Positions 11,826 through 63,920 of a stretch of 64,000 nt of DNA are shown piece after piece. The position numbers and the translations under genes were made by a program. The notes under the pieces are model-generated. The model did no database searches and was not told the origin of the DNA. It saw nothing but the letters and a program-made list of their open reading frames with translations. The DNA is from Narcine bancroftii (taxonomy: Eukaryota), in the NCBI RefSeq assembly GCF_036971445.1, contig NC_091476.1, positions 159,712,001 to 159,776,000 on the forward strand. The letters run 5' to 3'. The stretch's first letter is position 1. The number at the start of each line of letters is the position of its first letter.

Positions 11826-12028
11826 GTGAGTTTTGAGCTCCGTGTGGTTTGCTGATTTTGTGTCTTTTTAAACCTGAGGAGCCCGTTAATCAGAAACAGG
11901 ATAGAATTCAGGGACCGTTTTGAAGGCTAATTTGGTTCTTCAGTAGAACTAGATGAATGCACTGGTCAGACCAGCAGGGATTTGTTGAAACACGGGGGCA
12001 TTTTTAAACTAAAAGTTGGTGTGTCTGT

Positions 12029-12978
12029 TGTTACGAGCCCAGAGGACCCCAAAACCCAGAGGCAATAGATATTCACTATGACAAATGGTAACTTAAACAA
12101 AAGTTGTTTTTAATTATCTTTAAACATGAAAATAGAATCAAACTTATCACTAGCTTATTCTAAGCACACGTGTATGTAATGTGTGTGTCAGTTCAGGAAA
12201 GTTCTTTGGTTCACGGTCATTTCTCATTCCTCCCAAGTTCACTGGTTGAAGGCCATTCTTATACTGTGCACAGAATTTAGCATTTATAAAGTTCACCAGG
12301 CTCCGGTGCTTGAAAGATGAATGGTTACTGCTCAGGAAGGTACTTGTCGGTTTTCAGAGAGAGATTTGTTGTTCCAAGTCATCCACAACTGATGTACTTC
12401 CATCAGCCACTCTAGTGTCTTGCTGATGAAACTTGCCCCTTCAAGGTTCTCCAGATGACAACCTCTTTCTTTCAGGTCACCACAGAGTGCTTTTTTGTTT
12501 CTCTTATTCCAAGTGAAACATTAGACAGCCAGTCCTCTCCTCTTGCATGAACCACAGGGCTTTGACCAGGCCATCTTCCAAATAGATTTGCCAGTTTGTC
12601 CTGTTCCAGTCCCAGCTACTTCTGCTGGCTGTAACACTGTCAAGTGATCTCTCTGTATCTCTCTCTCTCAGAGAGAAAGCCTGTTTGACTCTCTCTGCTT
12701 GCAAAACCACATGATCCTTTTACAACAGCAAGCTCTCTTCCAGATAGCAGTGACTGACATGCTCTTTTATTTGTTGTCTTTTGTAAACAAAAATCCATCA
12801 GTGAAGTCTCTTGAGCACTCTTCAAAGCTCTTGCAAAAGCTGGGTAGCCAATATGTCTAGCATGGGGCAGAGGTCCAGTATTTCAAATAAGATCTGTTTT
12901 AAAGTGTTTGTATATGACCTACTCTAACAAACCTTTCCCAATTTATCTCCCAAAAACACATCTATATACTCTGTCACA
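12029..12978 (+). mobile_element. Solo-LTR-like element, copy 2
   Basis: TGTTACG...TGTCACA ends; 4-bp flanks ctgt/ctat. Confidence 0.75.
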
Positions 12979-13334
12979 CTATTATATTGATGATCTTGAT
13001 AACCTTTCTTCCATGCAGCTTTAAATTATTTAATAATTTTTCAATTAACATTAGTTTATTAAAGGTATTCTGGAATGTTGATTTTATTGATGTTGATATC
13101 TAGCTATTTCTTACTAATCATTAAATTTTCCCACTGTTGCACAAAGAAGAATATCAATTTTCAAACAATCCAGGGCAATTGAATTTTCTCTTCAATCAAT
13201 TTATCGTGATCTTTGGAATTAATATTAATTATTTTAAAATGATTCATTATTCACTGATTTGTTAAATGCTTTAATATATTTATCCACAGCATAGTAAGTC
13301 TTGCAAATTAGATAATCAAATAGAATATTTAAGA

Positions 13335-13575
13335 AACATTTAGTGTAGTGGTTAGTGCAACTCTGTTACAGCACCAGCGATTGGAACTTGGGTTCGAATC
13401 CCACGCTGTCTAAGTAGTTTGTACACTCTCCCCGTGGCTATGTGGATTTACCTCAGGGGCGCCGGTTTCCTACCTCCGTCCAAAGCATACCAGGGGTTGT
13501 GCGTTAATTGGGTGGCCCTGGCTCGTGGTCTGAAATGGCACATTATCATGCTGTATATCTAAATTTTTTTTTTAA
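13335..13575 (+). mobile_element. tRNA-derived SINE
   Basis: A box tagtgtagtgg, B box ggttcgaatcc, A/T-rich tail. Confidence 0.7.
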
Positions 13576-13626
13576 ATATAAGAATTGGAAATGGTTATTG
13601 TGCTGGAGAGAGTAATAAGGGATGTG

Positions 13627-14642
13627 TGTGACAAGTGATGTTATATTTTATATTGTATATAGAAATGTTTTAAAGGAGATAAATTGTGACAGGTTTTTTA
13701 GTGTAGGTCACATACAAACACTTCAAAACAGATCTCATTTAAAATGCCAGAGCTCTGCTCAAGCCATACAGTTCAGGCTCTGAGTGCCTTTGAAAAATTT
13801 CGAAGAATGCCTACAATGACTTCACAAGTATGTGTTAATTGGACATGCTGTGAAGTAATGGATTATTGTTGGAAATCAAAAGATGAACGAACTCAGAAGA
13901 TTAGGCCCGGAGCCGCGGTCTGTCTCCGAGAAGTTGGCTATTCTAAGAGTGTCATATGGTTTTCTCTGAATGAAAGGGAGAGAGAAATCAGTTCTATAGC
14001 AACAGTTGGGACTGGAAGATGACAAGCTGGCAAGCTTGTGGAAAAACACCATTTTGAAGACGGGTTGTGAGTTCTTAGTTCAACCTGGTCAAAGCCCTTG
14101 TGGTCCATACAAGAGCTGCATAATGTTTCACATGAAATAAGGGAAACAAAAAGGAACTCTGGTGACCTGAAAGAAAGAGGTTATCATCCAGAAAACTCTG
14201 ATACGGCAAGTTTTTTCGGCAAGACACTGAAGTGGCTGATCTAAAGGAATCAGTTGTGGGTGTCCAAAGAGCAACAAATCTCTTTATGAAAACCGACAAG
14301 AACCTTCCTGAGCGGTAGCCATTTATCTTTCAAGCACCGAAGCCTGGTGAAATTCATAAATGTTAAATTCTGTGCACAGTATAAAAGTTGCCTGCAACCA
14401 GTGAACTTGGAGGAGTGAGAAGTGAGATTGGAGTGTGAATTAAAGAACTTTTCTGAACTTGTACACACATTACATACAAGTGTTCTTGGAATTAGAGGGG
14501 AGTTAAGTTAAATAGTAATGAGTTAAAGTTTGATCCTGGTTTCATGTTTAAAGATAATTAAAAGTGGCTTTTGTTTAAGTAACCATTTGTCTTGGTGAAT
14601 TTCTATTGCTGCAGGGTTTTGGGGTCCTCTGGGCTTATAACA
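13627..14642 (-). mobile_element. Solo-LTR-like element, copy 3 (inverted)
   Basis: Reverse-complement homology to copy 2; TG...CA ends; no clear TSD. Confidence 0.75.
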
Positions 14643-15418
14643 AGAGACACAAATCCCTTTCCCTAACCAACTTAATAGTCAGTATTTTTGTATAGTTCAT
14701 GCATATTGTATTTTGAAAATTATTCCAGAAAATAGTATTGGGTAAAAATCTATAACCCCCTTGTTTTAGAATTTTCAATCTAAAACAGAAAATACAGGTT
14801 GGGCTACATCTGTAGCTGTAAGAAACCCTTTCTCAGGACTGAAAAGGAGATGAAAGAAGCTTGTAAAGTTGCAGGAAGAGTGGGGATGTCCCTGATGGGA
14901 TGAAACTCTGATGAGGAAAAGATATAAATGGATTTTCTGGGTCAATAATTGTGTGGTAACAATTAGAGAGTGAAATTATAGGCAGAAAAATATGGAGGTG
15001 GCAAAATGCATAAGAAGAGGCCTAGAAGGTCATGTTGGGCATGGCTCCACCCCCAGAGAGAAAATGAGAGAAAACAAAACAAGCTGAGCTCTTGTCACAG
15101 ATGGATAAATGATAGAGACTGGAAAAATTAAGTTGCCTAAAGTGGTAGGCTTTCAGATTGAGTCCAGGCGACAACAACATAACCTAAAAGAAATTGAGGT
15201 CTTGCTTCTCAAGCATGCATTTGAGCCTCACTATTGACAGTGCAGGACGCAAAAGACCAATGGACATTAACGTGCAGGCCGCAGGATCATTTTTTTGTTC
15301 ACCCATCCATATCCTTTCATCTGATTGTTGTCTCTATTTCTACACATTACTTGTCATTTTCTTGCAATAACATTCTTTGATATTTGTTAACATTTTATTT
15401 CTATTCAGATAGTTTTAA

Positions 15419-33714: not shown

Positions 33715-36700
33715 GTGAGCGGGCAGCCAGATGGAGCCGGGCGGCAGCGAGTGGGCCCGCTCCCGGCCTCCCGCCGCCGGGCCAGGTCCTGTTCTCCGCT
33801 CCCTGACTTTAGACGGAAACTTTTTCGACTTTAGCGGAAACTTTTTCGACTTTAGCGGAAACTTTTTTGAAGTGAACTGCGACCCTGCACAGACCTGCCC
33901 TGGACCGGCGGGGGTTTCCACTGCGTTGAGATGGGCTGCAGTCCTATTTTAAACCCAGTGACTACATACAGATTGGCTGCTTTCCCGTATGGCAAAGCTT
34001 TGTAGGATTAATGCTAAATCCGAGTTTTTAAAAAAAATTGGCGGCAGATTCGATTATCCGTGGCGGGATTGGGCGGGTTTTTGTGAACAATAGAGCGCCG
34101 CAGACGCCTTTTTTTTGTCTAACCCCCGGTGACGAGATGTTGAGAACATTTAATTTTCAAAGGTCCTCAAGTCAAGTGCTTCGTCTTCAAAGGTCCCAAG
34201 ATAAAATGGGACTCGGGAGACCTTTAAGTCAGTGGCAAGAAAGGATTTGAGGAAGGATACACTGGCTTTGGAGACGGTCCATTGATCCGGGGATGAAGGG
34301 GTTGACTTGTGATGAAAGATTAAATCGTCGAGGATTGTATTCGCTCGAGTTCAGAAGAATGACAGGAGATCTTATAGAAACATATAGGATTATGAAGGGT
34401 ATGGATAGGATAGATGTAGGATTTTGTGTTGGCCGGGGGAACTAAAACAAGAGGACACAGTCTCAAGATTCGAGGGAGTAGATTTAGGACAGAGATGAGG
34501 AAAAATAGTTTTTCCCAGAGAGTAGTGAATGTTTGGAATTCTCTAACCAGGGAAGTGGTTGAGGCTGCCTCATTAAACATATTTAAAATTCGGTTAGATC
34601 AATTTCTACATGATAAGAGGAATTAGGGGATATGGGGAGAAGGCAGGTAGGTGGAGTTAGGTCATAAATTAGATCAGCCATGATCGTATTGAATGGCGGA
34701 GCAGGCTCGATGGGCCATTTTTGGCCTTCTCCTGTTCCTATTGCATGTTCCAACCCACGTTGCTTGTTCAACAGATGATTACTTCACCCTTTTAGTTTTG
34801 CTTATTTATATCAGCACATTGCAAACAACTGGCGTGGTCCCAAGTGCTGGAGAGGTCATAAATTACATCTTGAGCAATGATTTGGGGGGCGGTATATAAC
34901 GGGTACCCGAGGTTTAGAATTGTACGTGCAACGTGGTAGCAATCACTTCATGCGGAGTGGGGGGGGTCATTCTTCTCTAAACCGCGAGCGGGTGTGGACC
35001 AGGTGCTGGTCAGTGGGACGAGGAGGGTGGGGATTTGTTCCAGCATGGACTAGTAGGGCTATACTGGCCTGTTCTGTGCTGTATACGGTTCTATGGGTGT
35101 GGAATCGAGGAGGAATCATATTTAAACCAGTTACGTCTCCACCTGATCTCCAAATCAATACGAGGATTTCTCTCTCATTGTTGCTACTTCTAATCTAGTC
35201 AATCCTTGTGATTGCACAGAGATTCAAATGATTTTTAACCATTGAAATGTCAAGAAAGCTCAATGTTTTTAATTTTGTCCTTATTGTATCTCATCGAACA
35301 AAAATAATTTGTGTAATATCCATAGTCAGGTTTGTGATATCCCAGATTTATAACCATATACAGCACAGAACAGGCCAGTTTGGCCCTACTAGTCCATGCC
35401 AGAACAAATCCCCACCCTCTTAGTCCCACTGAATATAACCAAGTCCCACTGAACCAAGTACCCTGCCTTGTAGTATTTGGCTGAAAACATAACTGTGGCT
35501 CTTTCTGCAGCTATTCCATGATTGGTTGAGAGTTCATGATTTGCTCTGTTTTTGATTTTCAGCGACTTTATTAATTTTTAATTTAGACTGATGTATTTTA
35601 CTTGCAGTTGGGGAAATGAAATCTGTCCTTGTAAAGTCAACATCTAGTGGATGTGATAAGTTCTGTTGGCTTTTTAAATCATTTTCTTTGACATTCAGCT
35701 TTCTAGTAAAATTTTGCAAAACTTCAAGTAATCATTGTGCACAACAAACCTCAAAGCAATTCCATCTCCAGTTAAAATATTAAAACTTTTACAGTTTAAT
35801 AATTAACTTTAAGCGAGGTACAACCCCATACATGGTGGTCAAATTTCCTGGATTTGTATGTCAAAAGCTGTGTTCATTTAAATTTGGAATAAAAGCACCT
35901 AGGATTAATGGTGATACTTCTGATGACACTCATTTTTCCATGAAGGAAATATGACAATCCTGATTAGAATGTGCAATTCACTCACAAAGCAGCAAAAAGC
36001 TCTGTAACATCTGGAAAGCCAGACTGTTTTCGAGGCAATTGGGCATGGAGTGAAAATGCATTGTAACTACCAATGATGTCCACATCTTGTGAATGAGTAC
36101 AAAAAATATTTTGATGGTATGTTTGCAACTTTAGTGGAATACTGTTATTCAAGATTCAATTTATTGTCATTATAATAAAGCAGTGTCAAATATCAAATTA
36201 CTTATGTCTGCCATAAGGCAGACAGATTCACCATTGGCAGAAATTGTCTGAAGCTCTTCTTACAGTCAGAAAAAGAGAAGCAAAGGAGAGTCTCTCCCCC
36301 CCCCCCCCCCCCCGGAATCACGGTGTCCATAGATTTGCCTCCAGTGCCTCTGCTACCATCCAGTCCAGTCCAAACCATTAGCAACCTGACCTCCAGATCC
36401 AAACCTCCAACAGAGTCAGGAACCCTTCAGTGCCTTCGACACCCCCCTTGCATCCCAGTTCTGATACCTGGTATCCCTTCAGCCAGTTTCGAGCCAGTCT
36501 CCGGCAAGTCCACAACCCAGCGCGAATCTCCTGACAGCAGTCTCCAGCAACCCCCAGCCTCCTTAGGTTCCTCGCCTCGAGTCACCAGCATGCGTGGGTC
36601 CTTCAGCCACAGAGCCTCCTCACTGGTCCGCTGCTGCAGTCACCAGACTGTGGGTCATCTCTGCTTCTCCTTCTCAGATGGGGGGTGGTTTCTCCATTTT

Positions 36701-39700
36701 CTGGTGCTCTGGGGCAGTCCTCTCCTCCCTGGAGTCTGCAATCCCTCATGGCTGTTGCTGATCCTGTGGTCGCAGGATTTTAAATAAAACCATGTTGTTC
36801 GAAGCCTGTGCGGGGCTGATGGCATTTGACTGGGTGGTTGGACCTCGTGGGAGTGCTGTATCGCTCCCTGCAGGTCTGCGCCAGCGGCTGCACTGCCTTT
36901 CCAGCAGCTCTGGCAGCATCGCCATTTTTTGCTTTTTAATCATTATAAATCCCACACAATTTCACAAATCAGGTGCTGTTTTTCACGTGATTAATGCATG
37001 AATAACTGTCCTGAATTTGTATTTCATTCCAGCTGAATCTTGGAGATGAGGAGAAATCAAATGACAGTGATTTTGGCAGTGGCAAAGAAAGTTGTGGAAT
37101 GGACTCCCTGCATTGCAACAAAGAATTGAGTCACTTTAATGAAGGTTTGTGGTTGTTTTTCTACAATATGAGTTAAGTATCAGTATTTTTATCTAATCCT
37201 ATAGTTCTCAGCCTTTTTTCTACTCTTGTAGCACCTTAGGTAATCCTGATGGCACAGGATGCCATCTTTGCTGTGGTTAGTGAGGGATTACTTGAAGTGG
37301 TATGTGAGTGGAAAGAAAATGGTTGAGAACCATTGATCAAATCTAATATTGATTTTTCTTTTAAAAGAAGATGTTATCCATTATCTATAGATTTGAATGG
37401 CTGCTGTACAGGAGGTAGCCATTTGGTTCATTTGGCTCTTTGTAGGCTAACTTAGTCAGCCCCGTAGTCCTACTCTTTCCATGTAGCCCTGCAAGCTATT
37501 TTTCATCTCGTGGTTATCTCATTACCATTTGTAGTCCTGATGGACTTTTCCTGTCACCTCTGCAATCAGAAGTGGGATTGACTTCTCTTTAACATGTTTC
37601 AGAAGGCTGTCATAATTGTATGCACTTTATCAAATTACTTCAGTGCATTTTGCTTCAGGAAGAATCAACTCCAGCTTATCCTTCAAACCAAAATTCATTT
37701 TTCCTAGAACCAGTGTGATAATTTTTTCCTGTAGTTTCTCTTGCACCATCATGTCCTTCCTAAATGAAGATGATGGCGCTGCCAGAGCCATGGTAGCGGC
37801 AGAGCTACTGCAGGTGCAGACCCACAGAGAGTGAGAGAGAGGAGTAGCAGCTCTTCCGCAGGGTCCAGCCACCTAGTCGACTGCCTTTGGCAGTTGTCTG
37901 CTTTGGATGGCCCGTTGAGGGAGCTGACAGTGGTTTTAGTTGAAATGCTGTGACTGCAGGTCTGCATCCAAGATGGCGGCCCCTATTAATCAGCAACGTC
38001 CACTAGGCACTGCAGATTCTGGGGAAGCGGATGACTGGAGCAGGATACCAGAGGACAGGAAAATCACGCACCGTCTGAGAGGGAGAAACAGAAGAGATGA
38101 CTCGCGGGGATGGTGACCAAGGTGGTGATCTAGTGAGTGGGCTCTGCAGCTGAGGGACCAATGTACGTGGCAGGCTACTGGTGACACGAGGCGAAGAAGC
38201 TGTGGGCTGTTGGGAGACTCCGACTGGGCAGCGGACTGCTGGAGACCGGCTCGAACTGGTTGGAGGGGATACCAGGTATCTGAACCGGGATGCAAGGAGG
38301 TGCCGAGGGTGCAGGAGGGTCCATGACCATGGTTCTAATCTGGAGTTCGCGTTGCCAATAATTTGGACTGAACTCTGTGGTTGCGAAAGTGCTGGAGGCA
38401 AATTTGCATCTCTCTCAATAACTAAGTCTGACTTTAAGAGGCACTGAGGCAATTCCTGCCAGTGGCGAATCTGTCTACCTTGCAGCAGGCAGAAAGAAAT
38501 TTCATGTGACGTGACACTGTTTTATTACTGTGATAATAAATTGAATCTTGAATCTTAAATTGCAGTGACCAGAATTTGATGAAAGTTTCCAGTTGTGATT
38601 TTTCAGCTATTGTAAACAGCCTCCTTTTGTATTCTGTGATCTGTTTTTGAAGCCCTCAATCCCATGTGCTTGGCTAATTGCTTTGTCAATGTTTGGAGGA
38701 ACATTCATGATGTACTGTTGCTCAAGGAGAGAGGAAGGGATAAACCAAGTAATTACAAGTCAGTTTAATATTGGTAATGGGAAAATTATTGTAATCTTTT
38801 CTAAGGGTCAAGATAAACCTTCATTGAGGAAGGCATGGAGTCATCAGAATTAGTCAAATTACCAGTATGGAATTGGAAATGTGTCTGATGTAATTTTCTT
38901 TCATTGAATTTTTTTAAGGTGGCAACAATGAGCGAGGGCAATGCATTTGGTGTATTCTTCGGGGACTTTATTGTGTCTTGTGTAGCTGGGTCAAAAATTA
39001 AAATAATTTGAAATCTAAATAAGAATAGATCTGAATAAGTAGTCTCCAGAATTGTCTTGGTATTAGGAACAAAGAGTAGTGGTTGACAGGAGGTTTTGTG
39101 ATTGGGAAATAAATGGGTTTCACAGAACTCTTTACTCAGAAACCTGCTTTCTGGGATAATTGGTGTCTAAGATTTGGGTTTAGAAGACATAAGGAATTTG
39201 TAAAAGATTCAAAAATATGAGTGTGACTGTCAGTATGGATGAAGGCTTTAGAGTGAATATGCAGATGATCTGTACAAATAGACAGCAGAAGTCTGAAGTA
39301 ATGTATAAGGGGTTTGAATCTGGCACAGTCTCAGGAATTTGTATGTTCTCCCATGTCTGTATGGGTTTCCTCTGGGTGTTTTGGTTTCCACCCACCCTTC
39401 AAAACATACAGGGTTGTAGGTTAATTGGGTGTAATTAGACGGCATGGGTTCGTGGGCCAAAAAGGCCCGTACCACGCTGTGCATCAAAAAAAAATTACAT
39501 TTAATTTATATGAGAAGCTCTGATGCTTGAAGGAAACAACTGTAAAATAATTAAAATTAATCGAGAATTTGTTCGTACAAGTTAAGGCTTGGAATGCATT
39601 ACTTTCATTGAAGGGTAGACACAATGGATTTAATACAACTTTCAATAAGCAACATTAATTAGTTTGTGTGTTCACATTGCTCTTTAATGTGCTCAAATTG

Positions 39701-52300: not shown

Positions 52301-55300
52301 ATTTGTGGTTAAAGATTATTCCTGGATTTGTGGCTGAACAATGCACAATTTTCTTTCAGATCAGCTAAGTATCAACCTTGCTTACAGCTGGAAACCTCTG
52401 ATTACACAACAGATGTTGAATCGTTAAAAGACATCCCTCAAGATGATGGGGCAAGCAAAATCTCTGCTTCAGCACTGATTCCGGAAATGGAAGAATCCCT
52501 TTTAAACAATTTGCATAATAAAGAAAATATTTACCCTGACTGCTCCGGGAGTGAAATTCACATTGAAAAGAATGAAGAACGACAACAAGAAATGGTTAAA
52601 CATTTGAATATTTCCACTGACATGGAAAGCAGAACAAAAGATTACCTGAATCTCGAGCATCACACAGAATCTGACCATCATTCTTTCTCTTTGAAGCCAA
52701 TTGAGGAAACTGGGTCAAGTGAAAATCTTACAATTATGCCCAAGGATTCTCACACAGATAAAATAGTTCTTGAGAGTGTGGTTGGGCTCTCCAGTGATGT
52801 CTCGAGAGTTGCACAAGAAGAGAAGCAGCAGTTGGAGGCTGCTTCAATGAACAAGCAAAGAAAATCAAAATTGGAAAAATTACGGGTGCTGGGAGTGGAT
52901 CTAACATTCAAACCTCGCCTTTGTGCTAATGATGGTGCATTTGTTAACCTGGAGGAGCCAAAAGTAAACAAAGGTTATCTTTTTCATCCGTTGTATTTAG
53001 AAATTAAGTGACATTTTTCTTGAGGGTCATTTATGAGAAATTAACTTCTGGTCTGCTGAATTTATCACAATGCCACATCAGGTTGGAGCATCTAAAAAAA
53101 TGATAAGGTACAAAGTGCCACTTCAGATGAATTTCTGTAGGGCCAAATAGTGAAAGGTGACCGTTTATTTACCTTCAGAAAGAAGATATTTCATAAAAGT
53201 GCACCTCTGGTCACCCTTAAGCATTATTTAACTTCATTGTTGGAGGGTGGATCCAGTAGGCAAACTATATTAGAACATGTATCATGATTTTTATTTAAGA
53301 CAGAATCATTGAATTTTTAGAAAGTTTTTTGGCATTGTTTGATCCTGAAGTTCAGTCAAATTATTCAGCTTGCCAATTCTATGATTACAATAATTGTGAA
53401 TATCAAAGAATGATACTGTGCAAGCCTTTGAAAAAAAAATCCATACCAATTTAATGAGCCCCTTACTTTAGATACTCGTTCTTCATTTAGTTATCTAATT
53501 CCCAGTTATTTAATGTTTCCATGGTCCTTTTAGGTATTGCATTTGAGAGATAAATAAACTCCACCTCTTTTTGGAGTAAACTGAACTCTGGCTTGGTTGT
53601 ATTTTTGAGGAAGCTTTCAATTTCATTAAAGTTTGTATGTTTCCATGCATGTTATGGGTGTAATTGTACTTTTTAATGAATCAAGTAAATTTCAATTGAA
53701 CAGAATTGAATTCAATAGAGATTTCTTTCTATTCATCACACAATCTTTGACAAGCATTTTCATGAATTTGTTTTGTACTCAGAGCTTCAAGCATTAAAGG
53801 AGCGTTTCCTCAAGCATGGCATCAAATCTGTTAAGCAGAGTCAAGAGCACCATGTTGAACTTAACATTATTCGTAAAACTACCACTGCTGAGGGGAAGGA
53901 GGAGCTCAAAGCAGATTCTGTAACTGTGATCTTGGGCAAGAACGAAATGGAAGAATATGTGCCAACAAAACCAGGCAAGTAATAAATACAGATTGTTGAT
54001 CAAATTGATCTTTAGTTTTCAGCTTAAGGTTGAATGTAGATCCTGCACCATAATCAATCCCTTCTCTGGCCAAAGGTCTATGCATATATTCAGTACAGCT
54101 TTTAAAATGAATGGGGTTCAGTGACTGCTTTGGCACTATTTACAGTATGGGATTTGCCTTTAGTTCTGACATTCACGTGCAATCTGTTCCCACTAAACCA
54201 TATTTGCTTGTTTGTTATTGTAGATTTATTCTAAATTTATGTTGATCACACTTTTCAACCAATTTTCAAATCTATTTGTTTAGAAAATGGAAAGGAGTTG
54301 AAAACAATCAATCACCTTGTCAAATCTGTTTACTGTGTTATGAAGTAGTTTGAGAAATGGAAAGTGAATGAAGTAGAATAAATGAAGGTCGAAAGCAAAA
54401 CATATTGCCAATCTCATAAAGCTGATAACATTTCAAAGTTGGTTTCATTGTGCATGAAACAATATATTGTACTCCTCTTTCATTGCCAATATTTTGGCTT
54501 TGTTCTTTTTTCCCCAGGTAAATCTGTAAATGTAAATGCAATCAGAATATATATATATTTTTTAAACTTTATTTAAAATTTTATGACATGAATAAAATAA
54601 AAATTACGTTTAAAGAAATAATAAAAAATAAGATGATAAAAATTAGAATACTACATCATTAAACTACACAAATTAACCCCCCCCATAATTATAACACAAC
54701 ATTAATCATCTAATTTAAAATTAATCCAACCCTCCCCCCAAAATAAAGAGTGAAGAATTAATTAACAATGTTGTAAATAAAATAGAAAAAAACCCGCTTA
54801 CAAAAAAAGGATAAAACTTAACAAAAAAATTACTAACAACAAAAAAATATCAATACTAAAATAATACCCTTAAACATATATTTAAATCAAACATAATTCA
54901 TGTATTTAACAAATGAAATCCACTTTAAAACTAAATTCAAATATTAAAATCATATATCAACCACATATCTGTTATACAAAAAATCATAATTAATAATACG
55001 TAAATACAGAATTTCCATTAATACCGTTTCCTTTATAATTCATCGAGAGAACAAAAACATCCCTTAGAAAAACAATCAGATAAACTTTTTATTCCCTTCC
55101 CCTCCCCTTATATAAAAAAGAAAAAAAAGTTCAAACTCTTATAAAATTCTCCATATTCTTCATTTATAACATCTTCAAAATTCTCTATCGAAATTAACTT
55201 AATTTTATTAAACTCTTCTCCCTCAATGTATTTGTACTTAATTTTCTTCTTCTTCTTATCACCTTTCCCCTCATCTTCCTCTTCATCTAATTCAACATCC

Positions 55301-58300
55301 TCAATTTTTGACTTATTATCTTCTGTGACATCATCCTCTTAAAAAAGAAAGAGAAAAAACCACCCCCCCCAAAAAAAGAGAAAAAAAAGGAGAGAAAAAA
55401 ACCTCCTAATTCCAATCAGAAAACAAAAAGAGTTAAAAAATATATATATATTTATTTTAAAATAATAATTTAAAAAAAACCTTCACTTCTTAACCCAAAA
55501 ATTAAAAAGAAAAAAATCAGGTCGGAGGTCACAACTACCTCCTCCTGTTTAAACCACACAAAGCGGTAACTCCCCCAAAATATTGGGTGTGAGATAACTC
55601 ACAGGTAGCTGATGACTTCTGGAAACTAGTGCCCACCCAGTTCCCTCTCCCAACTCCCATTTCATTAAACTATCATCATTATTTAAACTCTTCTCAAAAA
55701 AAAGATAAAAGATTTATTTTTTAAAATCAACATTACCACTTCGGTCACCATTGCTTCCATTTCTTTTAAAAATCTGGATCCCACCTTACATCTCTACTCT
55801 CTTTGGAGACCTTGAAGGACTACATCGTTCCTGAAACTGCATGATTGGTAGAGACTGAGCAAAGTCCATAACCTCTTTAGGATTGTCAAAGAACTTTGGC
55901 TAATTTCCATCCTAAAAAATCTTCAGTACCGTAGAATGCCTGAATGTTGCCTTATGTCTTTTTTTCCACAACCGTTCTTTTACAGAATTAAATTTGCGTC
56001 GTTGAAACATAATTTCTTGACTCAAATCTTGATAGAAGAAAACAGGATTATTCTGAACCATCAAAGGAGATCTATTTTGCTGGGCATTTCTAGTAACTGT
56101 ACGTAAAATTGTCTCTCTGTCACAATAGTTTAAACAACGGATCAAAACAGATCTTGGATTCTGTCCTGAAAAAAATTTTCTTCTTAAAACTCTATAAGCA
56201 CGTTCCAGTATTAAACCTTCAGGGAATTTATCCTGTCCTAACACTCGTGGAATCCATTCAGTAAAAAATTTTCTTGGATCTGGTCCTTCTATGCCTTCTG
56301 GCAAACCAACAATTTTCACGTTGTTCCGTCTAGATTGATTCTCCAAATAATCAACCTTTTTTGCTAAATTTTTATTTTGGATCTGCAATGTTTCAATTAT
56401 TCTATTTTCATCTTGCAGTTGATCCTGTGCATCGACTAAACCTTGATCACACATTTCAAATCTTTCAATGGTTTCAAGCTTAAAAGCTCCATTAATGACT
56501 TCCGCCATCGCATTAATCTTGGAAATAAACAGGTTCACAAAATTAGCGAAGTGACTCGATACAGAATATATCTTATCTTCAAGATCCTTAACAGACATTT
56601 CAACAGAAGTAGATTCAGGCATAATGGGGTCTTGCTGTTCCTTGGAGACCACGGGATCTTCTGTCCCTTCCCTTAATTTAGTATCTTTTCTAGCAGTTTG
56701 ACTTCGTATAAAAATCCCTCTCAAAGTCGCAATGCCAGGAGACTGAAGATCAGGGTTATCTTTAAGCCAAATCTCTTTAATCATCTTCACTGAATCGATG
56801 TCTGGAAAAACCGTTGTAATTGAAGATGCATTTTGCAGCGCCACCACTGTAGCAGTCGAATGACAACTCTTTAACTCTCCAGCTGGTGGCGCCCCAGCTG
56901 ATTCAACTGTCAAAGCCTCAGCAACAGCACCCACAGTGGCCGTTGTGTGAAATACTGGCACCCGTCCAGCTCCTTGGTCCGAAAGCTGTTGAATGCGACC
57001 TTCAAAGAGCCTCACCGGCTTAAAACGGAGCTTCAATGCCGAATTCTGCACGTCCTCCTCTGGATCCATTCTACGCTGAGTCCTGGCTTCTTGTAAACAA
57101 TTTCGGAAAATGTAGTTTTTTACATCTGTTGATGTTTTCTTTTACCTCTTTTTTTGCATATAAACCATCAGGCACTAATCCAACACCACTTATTATTTAT
57201 AAACTTTTAAAAGAACTTTAATGGGCACTTAAAGACAAAACAATAAATCATAGTCAGGAGAGGTCTGGAAGGCACGTCTGTTCCCTACGCCATCTTGCCA
57301 CACCCCCCGAATCAGAATATTCTTAATGCAGCTCCTATATATCTCATTTCTTTGACTGAAGGCCATTGAATTAAAAGCTTTGACAAGTACTCTGTAAATT
57401 AGTTTTGCAGGAAATGGCAGAAGGGTTTTTCTGGTTATATATTTTGGAGCTTTAATTAATGCCTTGTTCTTTGTTGCGCGATGCAGGGGAGAAACTTCAA
57501 GTTTTGAAAGCCAAACTTCAGGAAGCCATGAAAGTACGGCGGTTAGAAGAACGCCAGAAACGACAAGAACTGTACAAACTTGATAATGAGCAGGGTTTTG
57601 AGGATGAAGAGGATGAAGAAGAAGAGCTGACAGAATCTGAAGCAGAGGAATCTGAGGTACATTCAATCTTAGATTTTTTAAAAACTTGACAACAGAAAAA
57701 AAGGCCAAGAAAACAATTATTATACAAGTATTCCCAATCTATGCTAAAAATTATTTTCTCCACTTCGACCATTCTGTTGATGTATACTGTGATGATGTGC
57801 AGAGGAAAGGGAGGGACAGGTGGCAGACAGGTTCACATTCATTCTATAACCTGCTCTATCCTTTGTATTGCTGGTTCAGATAAAAATATAAATCTTGATT
57901 ACTTGAACTCAGTTAATCAAAATACATTTATGAAGATGAAGGAAATTTATTTTAGTATGGAAACTAGAAATGCTCAAAAATATTTCTATATTTAAAATAT
58001 TTTCCCTGAATATTGGCATCAAAATCATGAAACATACTAACATTTGGCAGTTTAGTTCATGAGAAAGAAAGCTTTAGGCTGTGGTGTTCTTTGTGGTTTA
58101 AGTTGGTAAGCACACAAGTGGCCAATAATATTTGTTCCAATATAATATGATACTGGTTTATGGGAGGATAAAATAGACCATTGATTGCTTAATAAATGGT
58201 GGGATACTGAAAATAGTAGAAGAATGGAGAAACCTTGGTGCAGGTTGACAGATCCCTGAAGATGGCAAGACCAGTAGATAAGAAAATTATTGTAACATTG

Positions 58301-61300
58301 TAACTTAAGTAGGGAGGTCATGCTGGATCTGTGTAAAACTAGTTAAGAAAAATGTATATACACTATACCCCAATTTACAAATACTCACTTTACGCAGAAA
58401 CCTGTGTTCGCTATCCAATAGTAGTGAATGGGTCTTCACTTTACATCATTTCCGCTTATGAAAAGTTTCATAGGAACGCTCTACTTTCGTAAAGCGGGAT
58501 ATACCTGGGTCAACACTTCGGTGTGTTGCAGTACAAGAATTTTATGAAAACATTGCTCGGGCTCCAGTTCCAGTTATGTGGCGAAATTGGAATTGTTTTC
58601 TTTGGGACAAAGAATGGGCAGAGGCATTTAAGTGGGATCTATAAAATTGGGAGTCCGCACAAGAAGATCCCAGTTCCCTTAAGAGATCAAAAACTGGGGA
58701 GCATGCATTTAAGGTAATTTTAGAAGGATAAAAATTAACTAAATGTTTTTGTTCATTGACTAGGAATTGTTCACTCAATCTGAAATATTGGTGAGGATAA
58801 CACTGTACATTGAAGTATTCTGATTGAACATTTGGAGTTCTATAACCTGCTATTGTTTTGCATAAGGATAGGATGTTCTAAGAGCCTGATTTTATTATTT
58901 TTACTTTTGGTTCAGTTTTGGCATATTCAAACAAACACCCTTCTCGCGTATTTTGATATCCAAGTACTTGTGGCAGCGATCTTTGAATTTGTCAATTAAT
59001 TTTTTTTCTTGCATTAATAGCAGTGAATATGTATTTGTTTTAGACTGCAGAATTACTTGGTGATGGAGAGGACCCAGTGGTGGAAGCAGGTTATGACTCC
59101 CAGTCTACTGATGCAGCACAGAGTAGGTGAAACCCAATTAAAAGTCACTTCCCCATTTGACTCAATCTCCCTTTCTCTTTCCTCTTTTCTGTGTGATGTA
59201 CAACAAATCATTTGACATTTAAGAAGTTTTCTTGTATGTCGAAAAATTTTCATATTCTACATTAAATGTGGAATTTTCCTAATTTCTCTGTGGTTGAATA
59301 TACCATAGTAAGATTTTGTTTGGCCTGTTTATTTAGTTCAGTATTTTGATTTGGAAATGTTCACAAAATGACCTTTTCTCAAAGTCACTGAAGCCACATT
59401 TACTGAGGGAAATTTTTTAGTGCAATCTCTGTTATCAACGTTTCTAATTATCTGACAGACTTTACAAGTGGTCAAAGTTTGTGAACAGCTGGCTTAAACC
59501 AATTTCTCAAAAATAATTGTCAAGCCTAGTTTATTTTGTGAATTTACATGTCGAAATATACATTTCCTGTGATGACTTGGAACAAACTGAAGATTTGTAT
59601 TCTGGTAAGTGGATGTCCCTCAATGTTTGATGTGTACTTTTTTTAAAGGGCTGTTAAACTTGCTCAGCTTGATTGTGTGTTTAGGCAACAGTTCAGTTAT
59701 AGGCCTCTATTTTTGCATGGAACAACACATGGCACTAATTTTATTTAATGTATTATTTCAGATCAAGACCCAGTCACCCAGAAGGAATCTACACCAATAC
59801 CTATCAAGTCAGATTTTTTACAGTCCTTAAATTCTGGTACAGATTCGTCTTCTAAAACTAGGTAATTTTTAGATATTTGTACCATTTTGTGCAGTTTGTT
59901 TGTTTTCAATGGGCAGTTAATTGTAACTTGATTTCCTTCCTTTTTATTTTTCTTGCCTGTCTGTATTATTTTTTTTTAATTTTTTATTTTTCACACTATA
60001 AACCACATTGATCAAGATACATACATTTTCCTTTTCAAATATATACAGTGTCGTTTTATCCCCCCCTCCCTCTTCCCATCCCACCCTCCCTACCTCCCCT
60101 CCCATTCATTTAAAGTTCAGAATCTAAGATACATTAAACCCATCAAACAATGTTGTCACTCAATAAAAATAAACAAGAAATTCCACTGAGTCAATTCTTT
60201 TCATTTTCTTCTCCTTCTGTCATTTTAGGTGGTAGATGTCCCCAGTAGGTTTTCTCTATTGTGTTTCATGTATGGCTCCCATATTTGTTCAAATATTGTA
60301 ATATTATTTCTTAAATTATATGTTATTTTTTTCTAATGGAATACATTTATTCATTTCTATATACCATTGTTGTATTCTTAAGTTATCTTCTAATTTCCAG
60401 GCTGACATAATACATTTTTTTGCTACAGCTAGGGCTATCCTAACAAATCTTTTTTGTGCACCGCCTGTCTGTATTATTTAATGTTTTTCTAGTACCTAGG
60501 TATTTAAAATTGGAACTTCATTATTCAATCTAATCTCATCAGAAGTATTTTTCCAGTTGTGTGGAAAGGTTTTGGTTCATGATGAGATGTACAGGTATTA
60601 GATTTGTTGGTCAAATTTGCTGAAGAAAAATATTTTCTGGATGAAATAATTATGGTTGTGTGTGTGTATCCTTGATGACTGGACTCGCATGAGGTGCCAA
60701 TCTTTCCACACACTTTAAAATTGCCACAGACATTTGTGATATACAAAAAAAAAATCTACCCTTTCTATGCCTGTATTATTTGGTGATGAAGTAGTGCCAC
60801 ATTTGTGGCACAAAATTTTCAATTGATTCATTGTTGAAGATCTTGCTTTTTTTTTTTTGGAGAGCATTATTAAATGGTATGCATAACATATAATGTTGAC
60901 AATTGTATGTTTTCTTTTCCAGTGAGCAGACTCCTGGCAATAGATTAAGACTGCAACTTCAACAAACCCCACCCAAAGGGGACAGCAAACTTGGTAAAAG
61001 ATGTTGTTTTTTTTGTCTTGCATCTCATTATTTGCTAAAAAGAAATACAATGTTAAATTTAAGAGATTCAATATTCTCATATTTCTTATCTTCATATCTT
61101 CCTTTTGATTAATCAAAAAGCAAGGTATGAAATGCAAAGCAAGAAAGGCAGCCTTTTGATTCTTGGTGCCTGACCTGGTAAATTCAATTTGATTTCTTTA
61201 TTTCTGTTGAATCTTATGTAAGTAGTGATTACCCAGATTGCAGTTTCTGGGAGAACCTAATACAGCAGCATCTAATCCTTCCCTCTTTTCACTTTTATAC

Positions 61301-63920
61301 AATTTGCTAAATTGTAATTAGGACATTTTTTACATAAATACGTTTTGCTTCCTTGCATATTCTGCCTCAGTCCCAATATCTTAATTGCCAAATTGATTTA
61401 TTTGAATTTATTAATTTTGTAAATCTGTATTCTCATCATAAATTGAAGTATTTCAAAAAGTACCATCTATTTCCTAAATGTGCTTTGGTCAGAAATGTTC
61501 TTTTTGAAACTTGAGAAAGCAGACTCAAAGCTATCTCAAATCCATACTTCTGAATAAGACAGATTTCTAATGTGACACAGAGAGTCTTAAATCAGTATTG
61601 ATAACTTTTTTTGAATAAAATGTTTTTTTTTTAAATGTATATTAATACATTCAGATGAGGATGATTCCACCTCACAGACATCCACAACAAAGGACAATAG
61701 CCACAACAGCAGCTTTGAGCTAATTGGTTCAATGATTCCTTCATATCAACCAATTAGCAAGCATCCTGGCAGATTTGGAATTGCTATGCATGGAGGATTC
61801 CGATCACCATCACCTAACCTCTTTAACCCAAACAGTCAGTTTAAAACAAGCTTCATTAGTTCAGCATCTAAGGTAAGCTTAAGATGTTAAATTTAAAATT
61901 TATATGGATTTCAGTTATTGGTGTCTTGGATTGCAGGATTGTGGCATAACCCCAGCATTAGCTATTCCACAGATGAATAAGTAATACAGTACATTTTTTT
62001 TGGAAGGCCAACTAAAATATTGCCAATAAAATTGTTACTTTGGGAAAAACATGTTGCAATTATTCTTTTGTCTTGGCATTGTATCAAACTAAATTTTAAT
62101 GAGCAAGTACAAAAAAAAGAAAAATTAATGTTTTGTCATGGGGTAAAGAATACATGATGAGAGAGAAAATACTGTACAAACCACAAAATAAAAATATTAA
62201 TGCATTTTAATGTCATCAGAGTTCTGGGAAGCTATCCGAACCCTCCATGCCAGTAGAAGATTCACAGGATTTGTACAATGCATCTCCAGAACCCAAAAAC
62301 TCAACTGGTGAATCTCAGTTTAGGTTCTCTCTCGAAGATGACACACAAAGTCAGTTACTTGATGCGGATGGGTAAGTTGATGTATGCTTTAAAATGGCCA
62401 GATTTGTGCAAATAAGATCTTTTACCAAGTTAACAATTTATTTTTGTTTGGGGCTTAGAATTGTGTCCAAGATTATTAAGATGTAGATTTATTGATTAAA
62501 GCCACTTAATCAACAATCTTTAATTTGGAGGATTTTATTACTTACCACTTGCATTGTTTTCTAAAATACTGGAATTGTACAACCTCTGAAATTAATTTTT
62601 TGGACTAGGTTTCTGAATGTGGGTCATCGCAGCAACAAGTGGCAGCCATTAAAGCGCCAGCTAATCTTGGATAGCATGGATGAAAATGCAATGGATGCTA
62701 ACATGGGGGAGTTGTTGGGCCTTTGTACAGGAGATTTCAAATCTCAAAATATCGACCCACTAAAGGAGAGAAAAGAAAATGTCGATGAGCTGCTGGGTCT
62801 CTGCTCTGGGAAATTCATTTCTCCAGGTACACTCTTTCAGTTTAACTTAATTCCAAATGCTTTGAGAAGGGATTGGTGAATGTACTATGGATGTGTTATC
62901 TGCTTGTTGTTGCAGAACTTATTTGGGCAGGTGTGAATTTGAAATAAAAATAATCTAGTGCCATTATTCCTTGAGGGGTAGGAGATTTTGAGGAAGAAGA
63001 TTTTCATCCAGTAGGGGTTTGTAATATTGGGACTGCACTGCCTGAGAGCATCAAGGAGGTAGGATAACAAGTATTTAATGATCAGTTGATGTACTGTGAC
63101 AAGTAAGGGCACGGATCAAGTACTAGCAGATGGGATTAGTATATATAGGTAATTGACAGCAGGTGTAGGCACAGTGGGACAATTGGCCTATTTCCATGCA
63201 ATTTGACTGAATTCATAGAAGGGATATATTCTTGGAAAAAGTTTTGAGGTTAAATGTAAATCAAAATGCTGAGATATGTTTCTTGGAAAAAGTTTTGAGG
63301 TAAAATGTAAATCAAAATGCTGAGATATGTTTCTTGGAAAAAGTTTTGAGGTAAAATGTAAATCAAAATGCTGAGATATGTTTCTTGGAAAAAGTTTTGA
63401 GGTAAAATGTAAATCAAAATGCTGAGATATGTCATGGACATTTTAATATTTACTGCTGTGTGGAGAGGTGATGGATTATTTGTAAAATGAAAAAAATAGC
63501 TTTATAAATTGAAAGTTCAGAAACTCAATAACGTTCCAGCAGAAATGTTTAAAGCGAGGAATTGCATCACTGGAATTTATTTGCAGCAGTGTTTCTTTCT
63601 CCTTGCAGTCGATTCATTGTCATCCATCACTTCTGCTGCAAAGCAGCAAAAAGTAACGACCACAGCAAGTGATGATCCTATGGCTGAAGTTCTTGCACTT
63701 TGCTCAGGCTCTTTTCCAACAGACAGGTAATATTTTCAATTCTGCATAGTGTTGTGTGGATGAGTTTACATTTTACTGTTGCAATATACATTTTGAAATG
63801 TTTTAAGAGTGAAAAGTACTTTTTGTAATCTGTTATCATTTCTATCCTTCCAGGGAAGATGATGAAAATGAAGACGACCAATTTCAGTTGCTAACTGATG
63901 ATGAGGTTTTTGAGAATGAG
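33700..63920 (+). CDS. CLSPN: Claspin, coding exons 1-18 (about 1000 codons, 3' incomplete)
   Basis: Phase-consistent exon chain with claspin motifs: [29 protein letters not shown] box [40 protein letters not shown], and three Chk1-binding repeats ExxxLC(S/T)GxF. Confidence 0.96.
33805..33868. repeat. 21-bp tandem repeat, 3 copies
   Basis: Unit gactttagcggaaactttttc. Confidence 0.9.
34248..34750 (+). mobile_element. CR1 LINE 3' end
   Basis: [33 protein letters not shown] followed by a CR1 3' UTR. Confidence 0.9.
36147..36928 (-). mobile_element. Non-coding retroposon with (TTGAATC)n tail, copy A
   Basis: Reverse-complement homolog of 37768-38556; 5' ATGGCG motif; aataaattgaatcttgaat tail. 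Confidence 0.7.
37033..37144 (+). CDS. CLSPN: CLSPN exon 2
   Basis: ag|[22 protein letters not shown]...FNE G|gt. Phases 0 and 1 fit the neighbouring exons. Confidence 0.8.
37200..37336. mobile_element. Single mini-MITE unit of the 19222-19814 family
   Basis: gttctcagccttttt...gaaagaaaatggttgagaaccattg. Confidence 0.7.
37768..38556 (+). mobile_element. Non-coding retroposon with (TTGAATC)n tail, copy B
   Basis: Ends aataaattgaatcttgaatctt; homologous to copy A. Confidence 0.7.
39880..40790 (-). mobile_element. Rex1/Babar-type LINE 3' remnant
   Basis: [38 protein letters not shown]. Confidence 0.85.
40790..41240 (-). mobile_element. L1 ORF2 C-terminal (zinc knuckle) remnant
   Basis: YLTTQKL...SDTCFRCG...HFW...PQDPMLFLL. 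Confidence 0.75.
41271..43000 (-). mobile_element. hAT (Buster/Charlie) transposon, decayed
   Basis: [23 protein letters not shown] and the dimerisation domain [12 protein letters not shown]...DLRLKLT, with frameshifts. Confidence 0.9.
43490..43620. repeat. 14-bp minisatellite
   Basis: (aatta[a/g]cacagcaa)n. Confidence 0.85.
43836..44284 (+). CDS. CLSPN: CLSPN exon 3
   Basis: ag|[23 protein letters not shown]...KKQ|gt. Confidence 0.92.
44423..44587 (+). CDS. CLSPN: CLSPN exon 4
   Basis: [14 protein letters not shown]...[13 protein letters not shown]. Confidence 0.95.
45548..45622 (+). CDS. CLSPN: CLSPN exon 5
   Basis: tag|[25 protein letters not shown]|gtgag, phase 0/0. Confidence 0.8.
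45713..46120. mobile_element. pogo/Tigger-like MITE
   Basis: tacaggtcaactccg...cggataatcagagttgtatggta termini; internal atccgaa repeats. Confidence 0.55.
46150..46793 (-). mobile_element. Rex1/Babar-type LINE 3' end
   Basis: [19 protein letters not shown]...[13 protein letters not shown]. Confidence 0.85.
46965..47972 (+). mobile_element. Solo-LTR-like element, copy 4 (plus a short 5' fragment at 46792-46880)
   Basis: TGTTATG...CATCACA ends; homologous to copies 1-3. Confidence 0.75.
49080..49164 (+). CDS. CLSPN: CLSPN exon 6
   Basis: [28 protein letters not shown]. Confidence 0.95.
49259..49439 (+). repeat. Local copy of 47484-47654
   Basis: Identical apart from (CT)n length. Confidence 0.9.
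49608..50750 (-). mobile_element. Rex1/Babar-type LINE remnant
   Basis: [54 protein letters not shown]. Confidence 0.88.
51004..51112 (+). CDS. CLSPN: CLSPN exon 7 (PIP box)
   Basis: [30 protein letters not shown]. Confidence 0.95.
51500..52030 (-). mobile_element. Rex1/Babar-type LINE RT fragment
   Basis: [21 protein letters not shown]...[11 protein letters not shown]. Confidence 0.88.
52360..52973 (+). CDS. CLSPN: CLSPN exon 8
   Basis: SAKYQPC...[20 protein letters not shown]. Confidence 0.93.
53783..53974 (+). CDS. CLSPN: CLSPN exon 9 (GC donor)
   Basis: [12 protein letters not shown]...PTKP G|gcaagt. Confidence 0.92.
55132..55338 (-). pseudogene. Captured cytosolic HSP90 coding fragment (charged linker to start of middle domain)
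   Basis: Translates without stops to [69 protein letters not shown]. Collinear with HSP90 KP(K/E)IEDVGSDEE...[42 protein letters not shown]. Confidence 0.88.
55912..57069 (-). CDS. L1 ORF1 protein (coiled coil, RRM, CTD), prematurely terminated
   Basis: [39 protein letters not shown]1-like sequence continues past two TAGs ([17 protein letters not shown]). Confidence 0.88.
   Translation of the reverse strand: MDPEEDVQNSALKLRFKPVRLFEGRIQQLSDQGAGRVPVFHTTATVGAVAEALTVESAGAPPAGELKSCHSTATVVALQNASSITTVFPDIDSVKMIKEIWLKDNPDLQSPGIATLRGIFIRSQTARKDTKLREGTEDPVVSKEQQDPIMPESTSVEMSVKDLEDKIYSVSSHFANFVNLFISKINAMAEVINGAFKLETIERFEMCDQGLVDAQDQLQDENRIIETLQIQNKNLAKKVDYLENQSRRNNVKIVGLPEGIEGPDPRKFFTEWIPRVLGQDKFPEGLILERAYRVLRRKFFSGQNPRSVLIRCLNYCDRETILRTVTRNAQQNRSPLMVQNNPVFFYQDLSQEIMFQRRKFNSVKERLWKKRHKATFRHSTVLKIF
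57487..57656 (+). CDS. CLSPN: CLSPN exon 10
   Basis: [35 protein letters not shown]... Confidence 0.95.
58090..58850 (+). mobile_element. Old CR1 remnant with a nested Tigger-like MITE (about 58360-58507)
   Basis: Decayed CR1 3' motifs, interrupted by an inverted-repeat element (tttacg/cgtaaa). Confidence 0.5.
59044..59122 (+). CDS. CLSPN: CLSPN exon 11 (donor at 59089 or 59122)
   Basis: tag|[10 protein letters not shown]...; two phase-1 donor candidates. Confidence 0.7.
59762..59861 (+). CDS. CLSPN: CLSPN exon 12
   Basis: cag|..QDPVTQK...TDSSSKT|gtaat. Confidence 0.8.
59972..60462 (-). mobile_element. 5'-truncated young L1 (ORF2 C-terminus, 3' UTR, polyA)
   Basis: [15 protein letters not shown]...QWYIEM..PLEK...IWEPY. 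17-bp TSD gcctgtctgtattattt (59955-59971, 60463-60479). Confidence 0.92.
60923..60993 (+). CDS. CLSPN: CLSPN exon 13
   Basis: cag|EQTPGNR...DSKL G|gtaa, phases 2/1. Confidence 0.82.
61655..61872 (+). CDS. CLSPN: CLSPN exon 14
   Basis: DEDDS...[18 protein letters not shown]...GGFRSPSP...SSASK. Confidence 0.95.
62220..62371 (+). CDS. CLSPN: CLSPN exon 15
   Basis: [26 protein letters not shown]...[13 protein letters not shown]. Confidence 0.96.
62609..62826 (+). CDS. CLSPN: CLSPN exon 16 (Chk1-binding repeats 1-2)
   Basis: [21 protein letters not shown]...[10 protein letters not shown]. Confidence 0.96.
63225..63431. repeat. 51-bp tandem repeat, about 4 copies
   Basis: Unit atatgtttcttggaaaaagttttgaggtaaaatgtaaatcaaaatgctgag. 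Confidence 0.92.
63609..63726 (+). CDS. CLSPN: CLSPN exon 17 (Chk1-binding repeat 3)
   Basis: [17 protein letters not shown]. Confidence 0.95.
63854..63920 (+). CDS. CLSPN: CLSPN exon 18
   Basis: cag|[22 protein letters not shown]|gtgag. Confidence 0.88.

Follow-up and report, generated by a model that had tools for sequence, protein, structure and literature searches.

A 64,000-nucleotide (nt) stretch of the Narcine bancroftii genome (assembly GCF_036971445.1, contig NC_091476.1, positions 159,712,001 to 159,776,000; hereafter the window) contains a 2.76-kb derivative of an L1 (long interspersed nuclear element 1) retrotransposon that retains only open reading frame 1 (ORF1) and carries a fragment of the cellular gene HSP90AA1 within it. 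The element lies at 54551-57309 on the minus strand, bounded by 11-nt target-site duplications (TSDs; 54540..54550 on its 3′ side and 57310..57320 on its 5′ side, recognized from the sequence and from copy L065 of the copy set), and consists, in order, of a 5′ untranslated region (UTR), ORF1, a spacer, the HSP90AA1 fragment (213 nt), an ORF2 remnant and the L1 3′ end. We interpret the fragment (55131..55340, minus strand), hereafter the piece, as a non-coding filler at the junction where ORF2 was lost, likely acquired when a reverse transcriptase (RT) jumped to HSP90AA1 RNA and back, and likely a functionless hitchhiker since then (probability roughly 0.78).

The piece was identified by PDB and Pfam searches, gene alignment and junction mapping. 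Its minus-strand frame 55338-55132, translated from the window, runs for 69 codons free of stops, matches HSP90 in PDB (E 1.2e-12) and scores 33.7 bits against the Pfam HSP90 model (PF00183; cut-off 24.4). These results bear out the HSP90 fragment proposed in an initial annotation of this DNA, as well as its placement within the TSDs on the sense strand of the element. The cytosolic HSP90 genes of the same genome were located by a family search, and window 55131-55340 (minus strand) proved 80.75% identical over 213 nt (E 1.5e-52) to one 303-nt HSP90AA1 exon on contig C5, which disposes of a low-complexity artefact. The initial annotation had expected a match to HSP90AA1 or HSP90AB1, and only the alpha paralogue was found as donor: the exon on C5 scores best as HSP90-alpha (140 vs. 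136.5 bits for beta, a small margin), that of the HSP90AB1 paralogue on contig C15 scores best as beta (151.4 vs. 132.3 bits for alpha), and the latter gave no useful match to the piece in the DNA comparison (best E 0.16) and was rejected as donor. The matched stretch corresponds to positions 59-271 of the 303-nt exon, both ends being internal, with no intron and no splice junction. The window copy is without one Lys codon relative to the gene (210 vs. 213 nt), differs from it at 38 of 210 sites and is heavily converted from C to T. Further HSP90AA1 sequence, masked by C>T changes, was sought in the tail, ORF1 and spacer by a C/T-collapsed local alignment to the 10-kb gene locus and rejected, since only the known piece stood clearly above shuffled sequences (325 vs. 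43); one score in the spacer, 90 against at most 75 after shuffling, is accounted for by L1 origin.

The piece is a family-wide component. A 25-mer taken from it has 1,014 exact matches in the genome (reversed-pattern control, 0); since 66 of the 90 copies sampled contain it, the family may be estimated at ~1,380 copies. Those 90 copies were chosen by ORF1 similarity alone from 150 listed matches, and every one carries the piece, nearly whole in 86, so that a secondary insertion in the window copy only is ruled out; uninterrupted full-length 2.8-kb units make up 71 of the 90, of which 67 have TSDs of variable length (7-19 nt). Conversely, 57 loci chosen by the piece have ORF1 sequence upstream in 48 cases (within the fetched flank) and the L1 3′ end in 55. 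The claim that the family had propagated the captured segment therefore holds, at more than 1,000 copies, and all carriers descend from a single capture: in a tree of the ORF2 remnant, which left out copy L297, the copies of subfamilies A and B group with L064, an old and divergent full-length copy (86.6% identical), in one clade (100/100). Subfamily B (12 of the 57 piece-picked loci; e.g. L063:2170-5846, minus strand, and L137-L166) has a different, intact-looking ORF1 and an L1 endonuclease (EN) fragment, followed by a switch into the end of the subfamily A ORF1, with the whole 3′ module of A retained; six of 30 B loci without a full ORF1 were left out of the analysis. B ORF1 is 76% identical to the window ORF1 at the DNA level, and B stands apart from A in the ORF1 tree and is mixed with young A copies in the remnant tree. 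Copies L063, L102, L107 and L124 sit in or beside other, more distant L1 copies. In a comparison covering four of 16 listed sequencing runs (X5, X6, X11 and X12), contigs from two further organisms contain the piece in the state found here, each differing by a single letter (X5, 55124-55331; X6, 55209-55341, depth 381), whereas X11 and X12 (organisms D and E) had no listed contig piece within the HSP90 segment and are uninformative either way.

Origin of the piece at the ORF2 deletion

The junctions were mapped against autonomous relatives. A pattern at the end of the L1 endonuclease occurs at 370 genome places, from which 20 were taken for comparison; these are ~6-kb L1s with EN and RT (Exo_endo_phos, E 1.1e-8; RVT_1, E 2.4e-33). 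A first set of 21 EN-bearing L1s (~68% identity) was too distant for this purpose. None of the 41 autonomous L1s contains the HSP90 piece (0/20 related and 0/21 more distant). The element aligns to the 20 relatives in three blocks, namely the 5′ UTR (57150..57309, colinear with the relatives), ORF1 (55750..57141) and inter-ORF spacer (55341..55749) at ~75% identity; a 190-nt stretch from the 3′ third of ORF2, present in 17 of the 20 and no longer coding in the element (54927..55130), at ~80%; and the 3′ end with its A-rich tail (54551..54925), at ~73%, joined to the ORF2 remnant across a second deletion of ~640 nt. All of these features lie on the minus strand, and the spacer assignment draws on divergence and folding as well as on the relatives and junctions.

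The first two blocks are separated by the piece, whose left edge falls 1-2 nt before the ORF2 ATG, at a shared 4-nt word (AAGA), where the T-rich end of the spacer abutted the ORF2 start codon in the autonomous parent; about 2 nt are shared at its right edge. The ORF2 span it replaces measures 2,861 and 2,833 nt in two autonomous copies (~2.85 kb) and extends from the start codon to past the RT, which makes the piece the likely filler of a double template switch that created the element. Capture and deletion as one event also fit because the piece (38/210) and the ORF2 remnant (36 of 190 sites differing from the autonomous copies) are similarly diverged. During target-primed reverse transcription, an RT would have copied the L1 3′ end into ORF2, switched onto an HSP90AA1 transcript and switched back to L1 RNA, in the spacer, just before the ORF2 ATG; autonomous L1s would then have supplied ORF2p in trans to mobilize the product, the mode presumed for HAL1 elements and one suggested here by the loss of the RT, by the L1 3′ end and by the TSDs, with the piece hitchhiking thereafter. 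The earlier proposal that a host mRNA was captured by template switching thus stands in part: host origin, single capture, sense-orientation filling of the ORF2 deletion and the 4-nt microhomology make switching likely, while an mRNA template is unproven because the piece lies wholly within one exon. That the template was RNA is suggested by orientation and context only.

Several observations weigh against this reading of origin and subsequent neutrality. No direct autonomous parent was found, L297, the relative nearest in ORF1, breaking off ahead of the right junction; no splice junction is spanned by the piece; the junction microhomologies are short and could be due to chance; and the piece was kept in every copy although the nearby 640-nt stretch was deleted. 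Moreover, the uncorrected ratio of nonsynonymous to synonymous polymorphism (pN/pS) of the piece is 0.26 in an alignment of 24 copies (six of 30, all interrupted, having been left out), below the 0.44-0.54 of ORF1.

An unlikely alternative is a DNA-level event, in which repair of a broken L1 copy deleted part of it and inserted sequence templated by HSP90AA1 cDNA or DNA, leaving a product still mobile in trans. Such an event would accord with a piece that has neither intron nor splice junction, and with the other short HSP90AA1 fragments of this genome, of which the 41 listed matches include at least 11, several of them within other repeats. Sense orientation, flanks from the same L1 in the right order on both sides and a left junction 1-2 nt from the ORF2 start instead fit one continuous cDNA; this argument is weak, orientation by itself being a coin toss. 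Because so many fragments exist, one of them spliced, HSP90AA1 transcripts evidently reach reverse transcriptases in this genome.

The separate fragments are 65-560 nt in length, 89-99% identical to the gene and nearly all derived from one late exon (C8:287695158, C17:35047196, C9:206052091, C1:429602572, C9:75724688, C5:34808269, C8:83221847, C15:65926395, C15:61956566, C16:196604459 and C5:374752435; the set comprises L126-L135 and two more). Seven end within 1 nt of one transcript position; five single-exon fragments with that shared end have, as read, no poly(A) and resemble tailless retropseudogenes. The spliced fragment runs into the 3′ UTR.

Sense-strand C-to-T conversion downstream of the spacer

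The commonest state among 138 copies differs from the gene by C>T at 20 of 23 sites, compared with G>A at 4/51, A>G at 9/104 and T>C at 1/35 (C>T vs. G>A, p 2.6e-11). Conversion was progressive: nine gene C were still intact when old and young copies split, and six of these changed later on the young branch, which rules out a single hyper-editing burst at capture as the sole cause. Private mutations (singletons), counted outside CpG and homopolymer columns, are symmetric (C>T 0.0035; G>A 0.0036) and the bias is therefore not post-insertional. Nor is it a trait of HSP90 fragments, since nine other HSP90AA1 fragments outside the family lack it (C>T 6/330; G>A 15/350). It is in the replicating lineage, and not in copies already inserted, that C becomes T on the sense strand past the spacer. 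An equivalent bias is present in the ORF2 remnant (C>T 10/14 vs. G>A 6/40, p 2e-4), and between old and young copies the C/T differences per C site amount to 0.04-0.22 in the 5′ UTR, ORF1 and spacer but to 0.54-0.82 in the piece, remnant and 3′ end, where G/A differences stay at 0.00-0.10; the value for the T-rich 3′ end may be inflated by slippage, while the piece and remnant align cleanly. Taken together, piece and remnant have 15/22 C/T differences between old and young copies, against 19/101 in the weakly constrained N-terminus of ORF1 (p 1e-5), where G/A differences are 27/123.

Editing of cDNA by APOBEC3 yields G>A on the sense strand, opposite to the pattern described here. A tentative explanation, which we hold at somewhat below even odds, invokes C-to-U deamination within the 3′ part of the element RNA, which is poorly translated, each reverse transcription fixing the changes. 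It is possible, with rather more doubt, that a whole L1 clade is deaminated in this way on its own RNA, in the poorly translated part past ORF1, with a strand and region unlike those of APOBEC3 G>A editing; if true, deamination would account for the scarcity of C and richness in T of ORF2 and the 3′ ends in these L1s and make the piece a natural reporter of a retrotransposon mutator. Among singletons in the 3′ part, C>T is not significantly in excess (p 0.16), so that a mutator acting in each cycle is not seen directly; this speaks against the explanation unless few changes arise per cycle or the C that survive resist conversion.

The C>T bias alone, as distinct from the origin of the piece, has a nearly even chance of being due not to deamination but to misincorporation by RT, or to selection favouring RNA rich in U and poor in C past ORF1. 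Autonomous ORF2 is likewise C-poor, the ratio of T to C at pyrimidine-ending codons in one autonomous copy being 330:18 in ORF2 and 47:14 in ORF1. Published work reports T-rich spacers and 3′ UTRs in fish L1s (PMC5381506) and argues that base composition is maintained by selection (PMC7140322). Plain RT error should also strike the weakly constrained N-terminus of ORF1, in which C/T differences resemble G/A differences, and site-by-site selection on 20 scattered C would be demanding. The bias has in common with L1 A-bias and APOBEC3-type G>A editing (PMC5381506, PMC7140322) a strand-asymmetric L1 composition. It differs in its sense C>T direction, in being limited to the part 3′ of the spacer and in being measured against a known ancestral sequence. 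The two papers contain no mention of 'shark'. Because the donor gene is intact, the piece constitutes a polarized mutation record of a replicating L1 lineage, and the question of what drives L1 base composition becomes directly testable.

Possible RNA and peptide roles of the piece

The initial annotation had also suggested that the piece could act at the RNA level, as a decoy or as a source of PIWI-interacting RNAs (piRNAs) cross-targeting HSP90. In the latter case, antisense piRNAs from family copies would target HSP90AA1 mRNA, weaken piRNA loading and so help the element. We consider such RNA cargo very unlikely. In its favour, HSP90-alpha is needed in the mouse for fetal piRNA biogenesis and for holding down L1 protein, according to PMC4231750, and it was the alpha paralogue that served as donor; the module was taken up by lineage B; the window copy has 15 guide-like windows under our own pairing rule; and the persistence of an exact 21-nt match to HSP90AA1 in 124 of 138 copies makes antisense cross-targeting possible. 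The two surviving exact runs, however, contain 0 and 1 C and hence survive trivially, and every sense C>T change creates an A-C mismatch for an antisense guide. The main expansion also followed conversion (97 of 100 listed pattern matches are fully converted), the piece diverges fastest of the element parts between old and young copies (24/213, vs. 19/398 in the spacer and 134/1,395 in ORF1), and what lineage B took was 1.4 kb including the L1 3′ end, not the piece alone. The piece has no stable fold (z +1.87, vs. −3.44 for the spacer core). On the sequence evidence, decoy and piRNA roles thus appear unsupported.

The spacer core (~55510-55700, minus strand) is the most conserved part of the element and forms a stable fold, though ORF2 is gone; its conservation and folding hint at a role in cis.

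The piece is not a peptide module. Of 138 distinct copies, 135 have TAA directly ahead of the frame; an in-frame start is missing (a Met is found in 4 of the 61 copies that keep the frame); and among 83 complete ORF1-picked copies the frame is open in 52 and broken in 31 (22 frameshifted, 9 with stops), seven more copies being incomplete. A frameshift and stops are found in the old copy L064, whose in-frame TAG is also seen in a few others; the lineage therefore went through a stage with a stop. Changes from gene to family comprise 23 nonsynonymous and 15 synonymous sites, a nonsynonymous share of 0.61 compared with 0.66 ± 0.05 expected under the observed base-change rates (p 0.15). The open, unshifted frame noted initially stands as 69 codons without a stop, apart from the missing Lys codon, but it is uninformative because the frame remained stop-free in 60% of neutral simulations. 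The purifying selection implied by the pN/pS of 0.26 disappeared in a spectrum-aware test on 90 copies, in which singletons (75 nonsynonymous, N, and 19 synonymous, S; expected fraction 0.80) were exactly neutral, as in the two other frames; this test speaks for inserted copies only. The piece thus has neither the start codon nor the conserved frame nor the below-neutral nonsynonymous-to-synonymous ratio (dN/dS) of functional gene cargo or a retrogene. Translation as an acidic/basic HSP90-linker peptide or ORF1 fusion, for which the 52 open frames and a preceding T-rich tract plus AG resembling a splice acceptor might be cited, is extremely improbable given the upstream TAA, the broken and start-less frames, the TAG in the lineage and the near-neutral nonsynonymous share, the T-rich tract being the native end of the L1 spacer (and neither an inverted HSP90 piece nor a selected splice acceptor) and the first ATG past the junction, near the old ORF2 start, opening a different, 15-codon non-HSP90 frame in 126 of 138 copies.

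Relation to HAL1 and genomic surroundings

The derivation of the element from the L1 clade is indicated by its colinearity, at 73-80% identity, with 6-kb elements encoding EN and RT, and by its ORF1, which nests among theirs in the tree. The ORF1 assignment draws on the open reading frame list, atlas scores, relatives and trees: Pfam and PDB searches gave no direct match for ORF1, subfamily B ORF1 has atlas scores of 0.93-0.94 to Transposase_22 / L1 RRM clusters, and the window ORF1 is orthologous to that of the EN/RT-bearing copies. EN and RT themselves were lost with the ~2.85 kb of ORF2; RT-like matches (68-71%) occur in three of the 57 piece-picked loci, where they lie beyond the 3′ ends of the elements. 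The A-rich tail and variable TSDs indicate that the element was retrotransposed as a unit.

The open ORF1 frame extends from 57141 to 55912 (409 amino acids, stop to stop), and the remainder of the C-terminal domain lies past the stop. This truncation results from a CAG>TAG change at 55912-55914 (minus strand), common to 81 of the 90 young copies. Constraint on ORF1 is detectable on the old-copy branch (N9/S10, p 0.004) and undetectable on the young-A branch (N18/S7, p 0.31); A-derived pieces of B copies formed part of the outgroups used for the final 29 codons in this branch test. The young subfamily may therefore have spread without full ORF1p.

Judged by its structure, the element works like HAL1, which together with HeT-A and Ag-Sponge represents the bipartite, non-autonomous LINEs in which ORF1 is present (PMC5753468, PMC5786205). 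It shares with HAL1 an L1 derivation, retention of the 5′ UTR and ORF1, loss of EN and RT, an A-rich tail, TSDs, an origin by internal deletion and a probable need for ORF2p in trans. It differs from HAL1, which these sources describe in mammals, in having arisen independently from a local L1 whose inter-ORF spacer is long, in the filling of the deletion by a cellular gene fragment, and in the fixed premature ORF1 stop and lack of detectable ORF1 constraint of its young subfamily. We therefore regard the element as a HAL1-type variant, new in carrying its own mutation reporter. It preserves the footprint of the birth of a half-L1, ORF2 having been lost in an event probably bridged by a cellular transcript.

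Two other systems combine host sequence with retroelements. Among human mRNA/LINE-1 chimeric insertions, 17 chimeras were described, RAP1GDS1-L1PA2 being present in four copies (PMC13174262; HSP90 and HAL1 are unmentioned in its main text). In these, as here, a cellular RNA fragment and L1 sequence lie within one TSD pair, but as described there the fragment is 5′ of the L1 and present in one to four copies, whereas in the present element it is internal, with L1 on both sides, and amplified more than 1,000-fold; an internal host protein-coding fragment can thus ride a non-LTR family to >1,000 copies. Retrocopies mediated by long terminal repeat (LTR) elements arise by a microsimilarity-dependent double template switch (PMC5131818) and similarly place an internal mRNA fragment between discontinuous retroelement parts with short shared words at the joints. 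They involve LTR elements and are young, while here the element is non-LTR, the chimera founded a high-copy family and coding constraint was lost. A literature search, by title and abstract start, retrieved no HSP90-bearing LINE and no internal host-gene filler in an ORF1-only element; most subscription journals lay outside its coverage, and supplementary libraries, Repbase or Dfam may hold the family. In these species, family copies will be mistaken in annotation for >1,000 HSP90 pseudogenes and will disturb the mapping of HSP90 reads.

The element lies antisense in an intron of claspin, upstream of the exon at 57489..57656 (plus strand, E 2.8e-16). Claspin exons flank it on both sides across window 52313-59120 (plus strand), the other exons being seen as open reading frames. 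Elsewhere in the window, tandem arrays with periods of 51 and 14 nt occupy 63178-63483 and 43512-43637, respectively. Long inverted-repeat pairs, ~2.3-2.6 kb across, were found at 12020-14659 and 36147-38553 and are possibly non-autonomous DNA transposons; copies related to them lie near 1600-2500 and 46750-47900.

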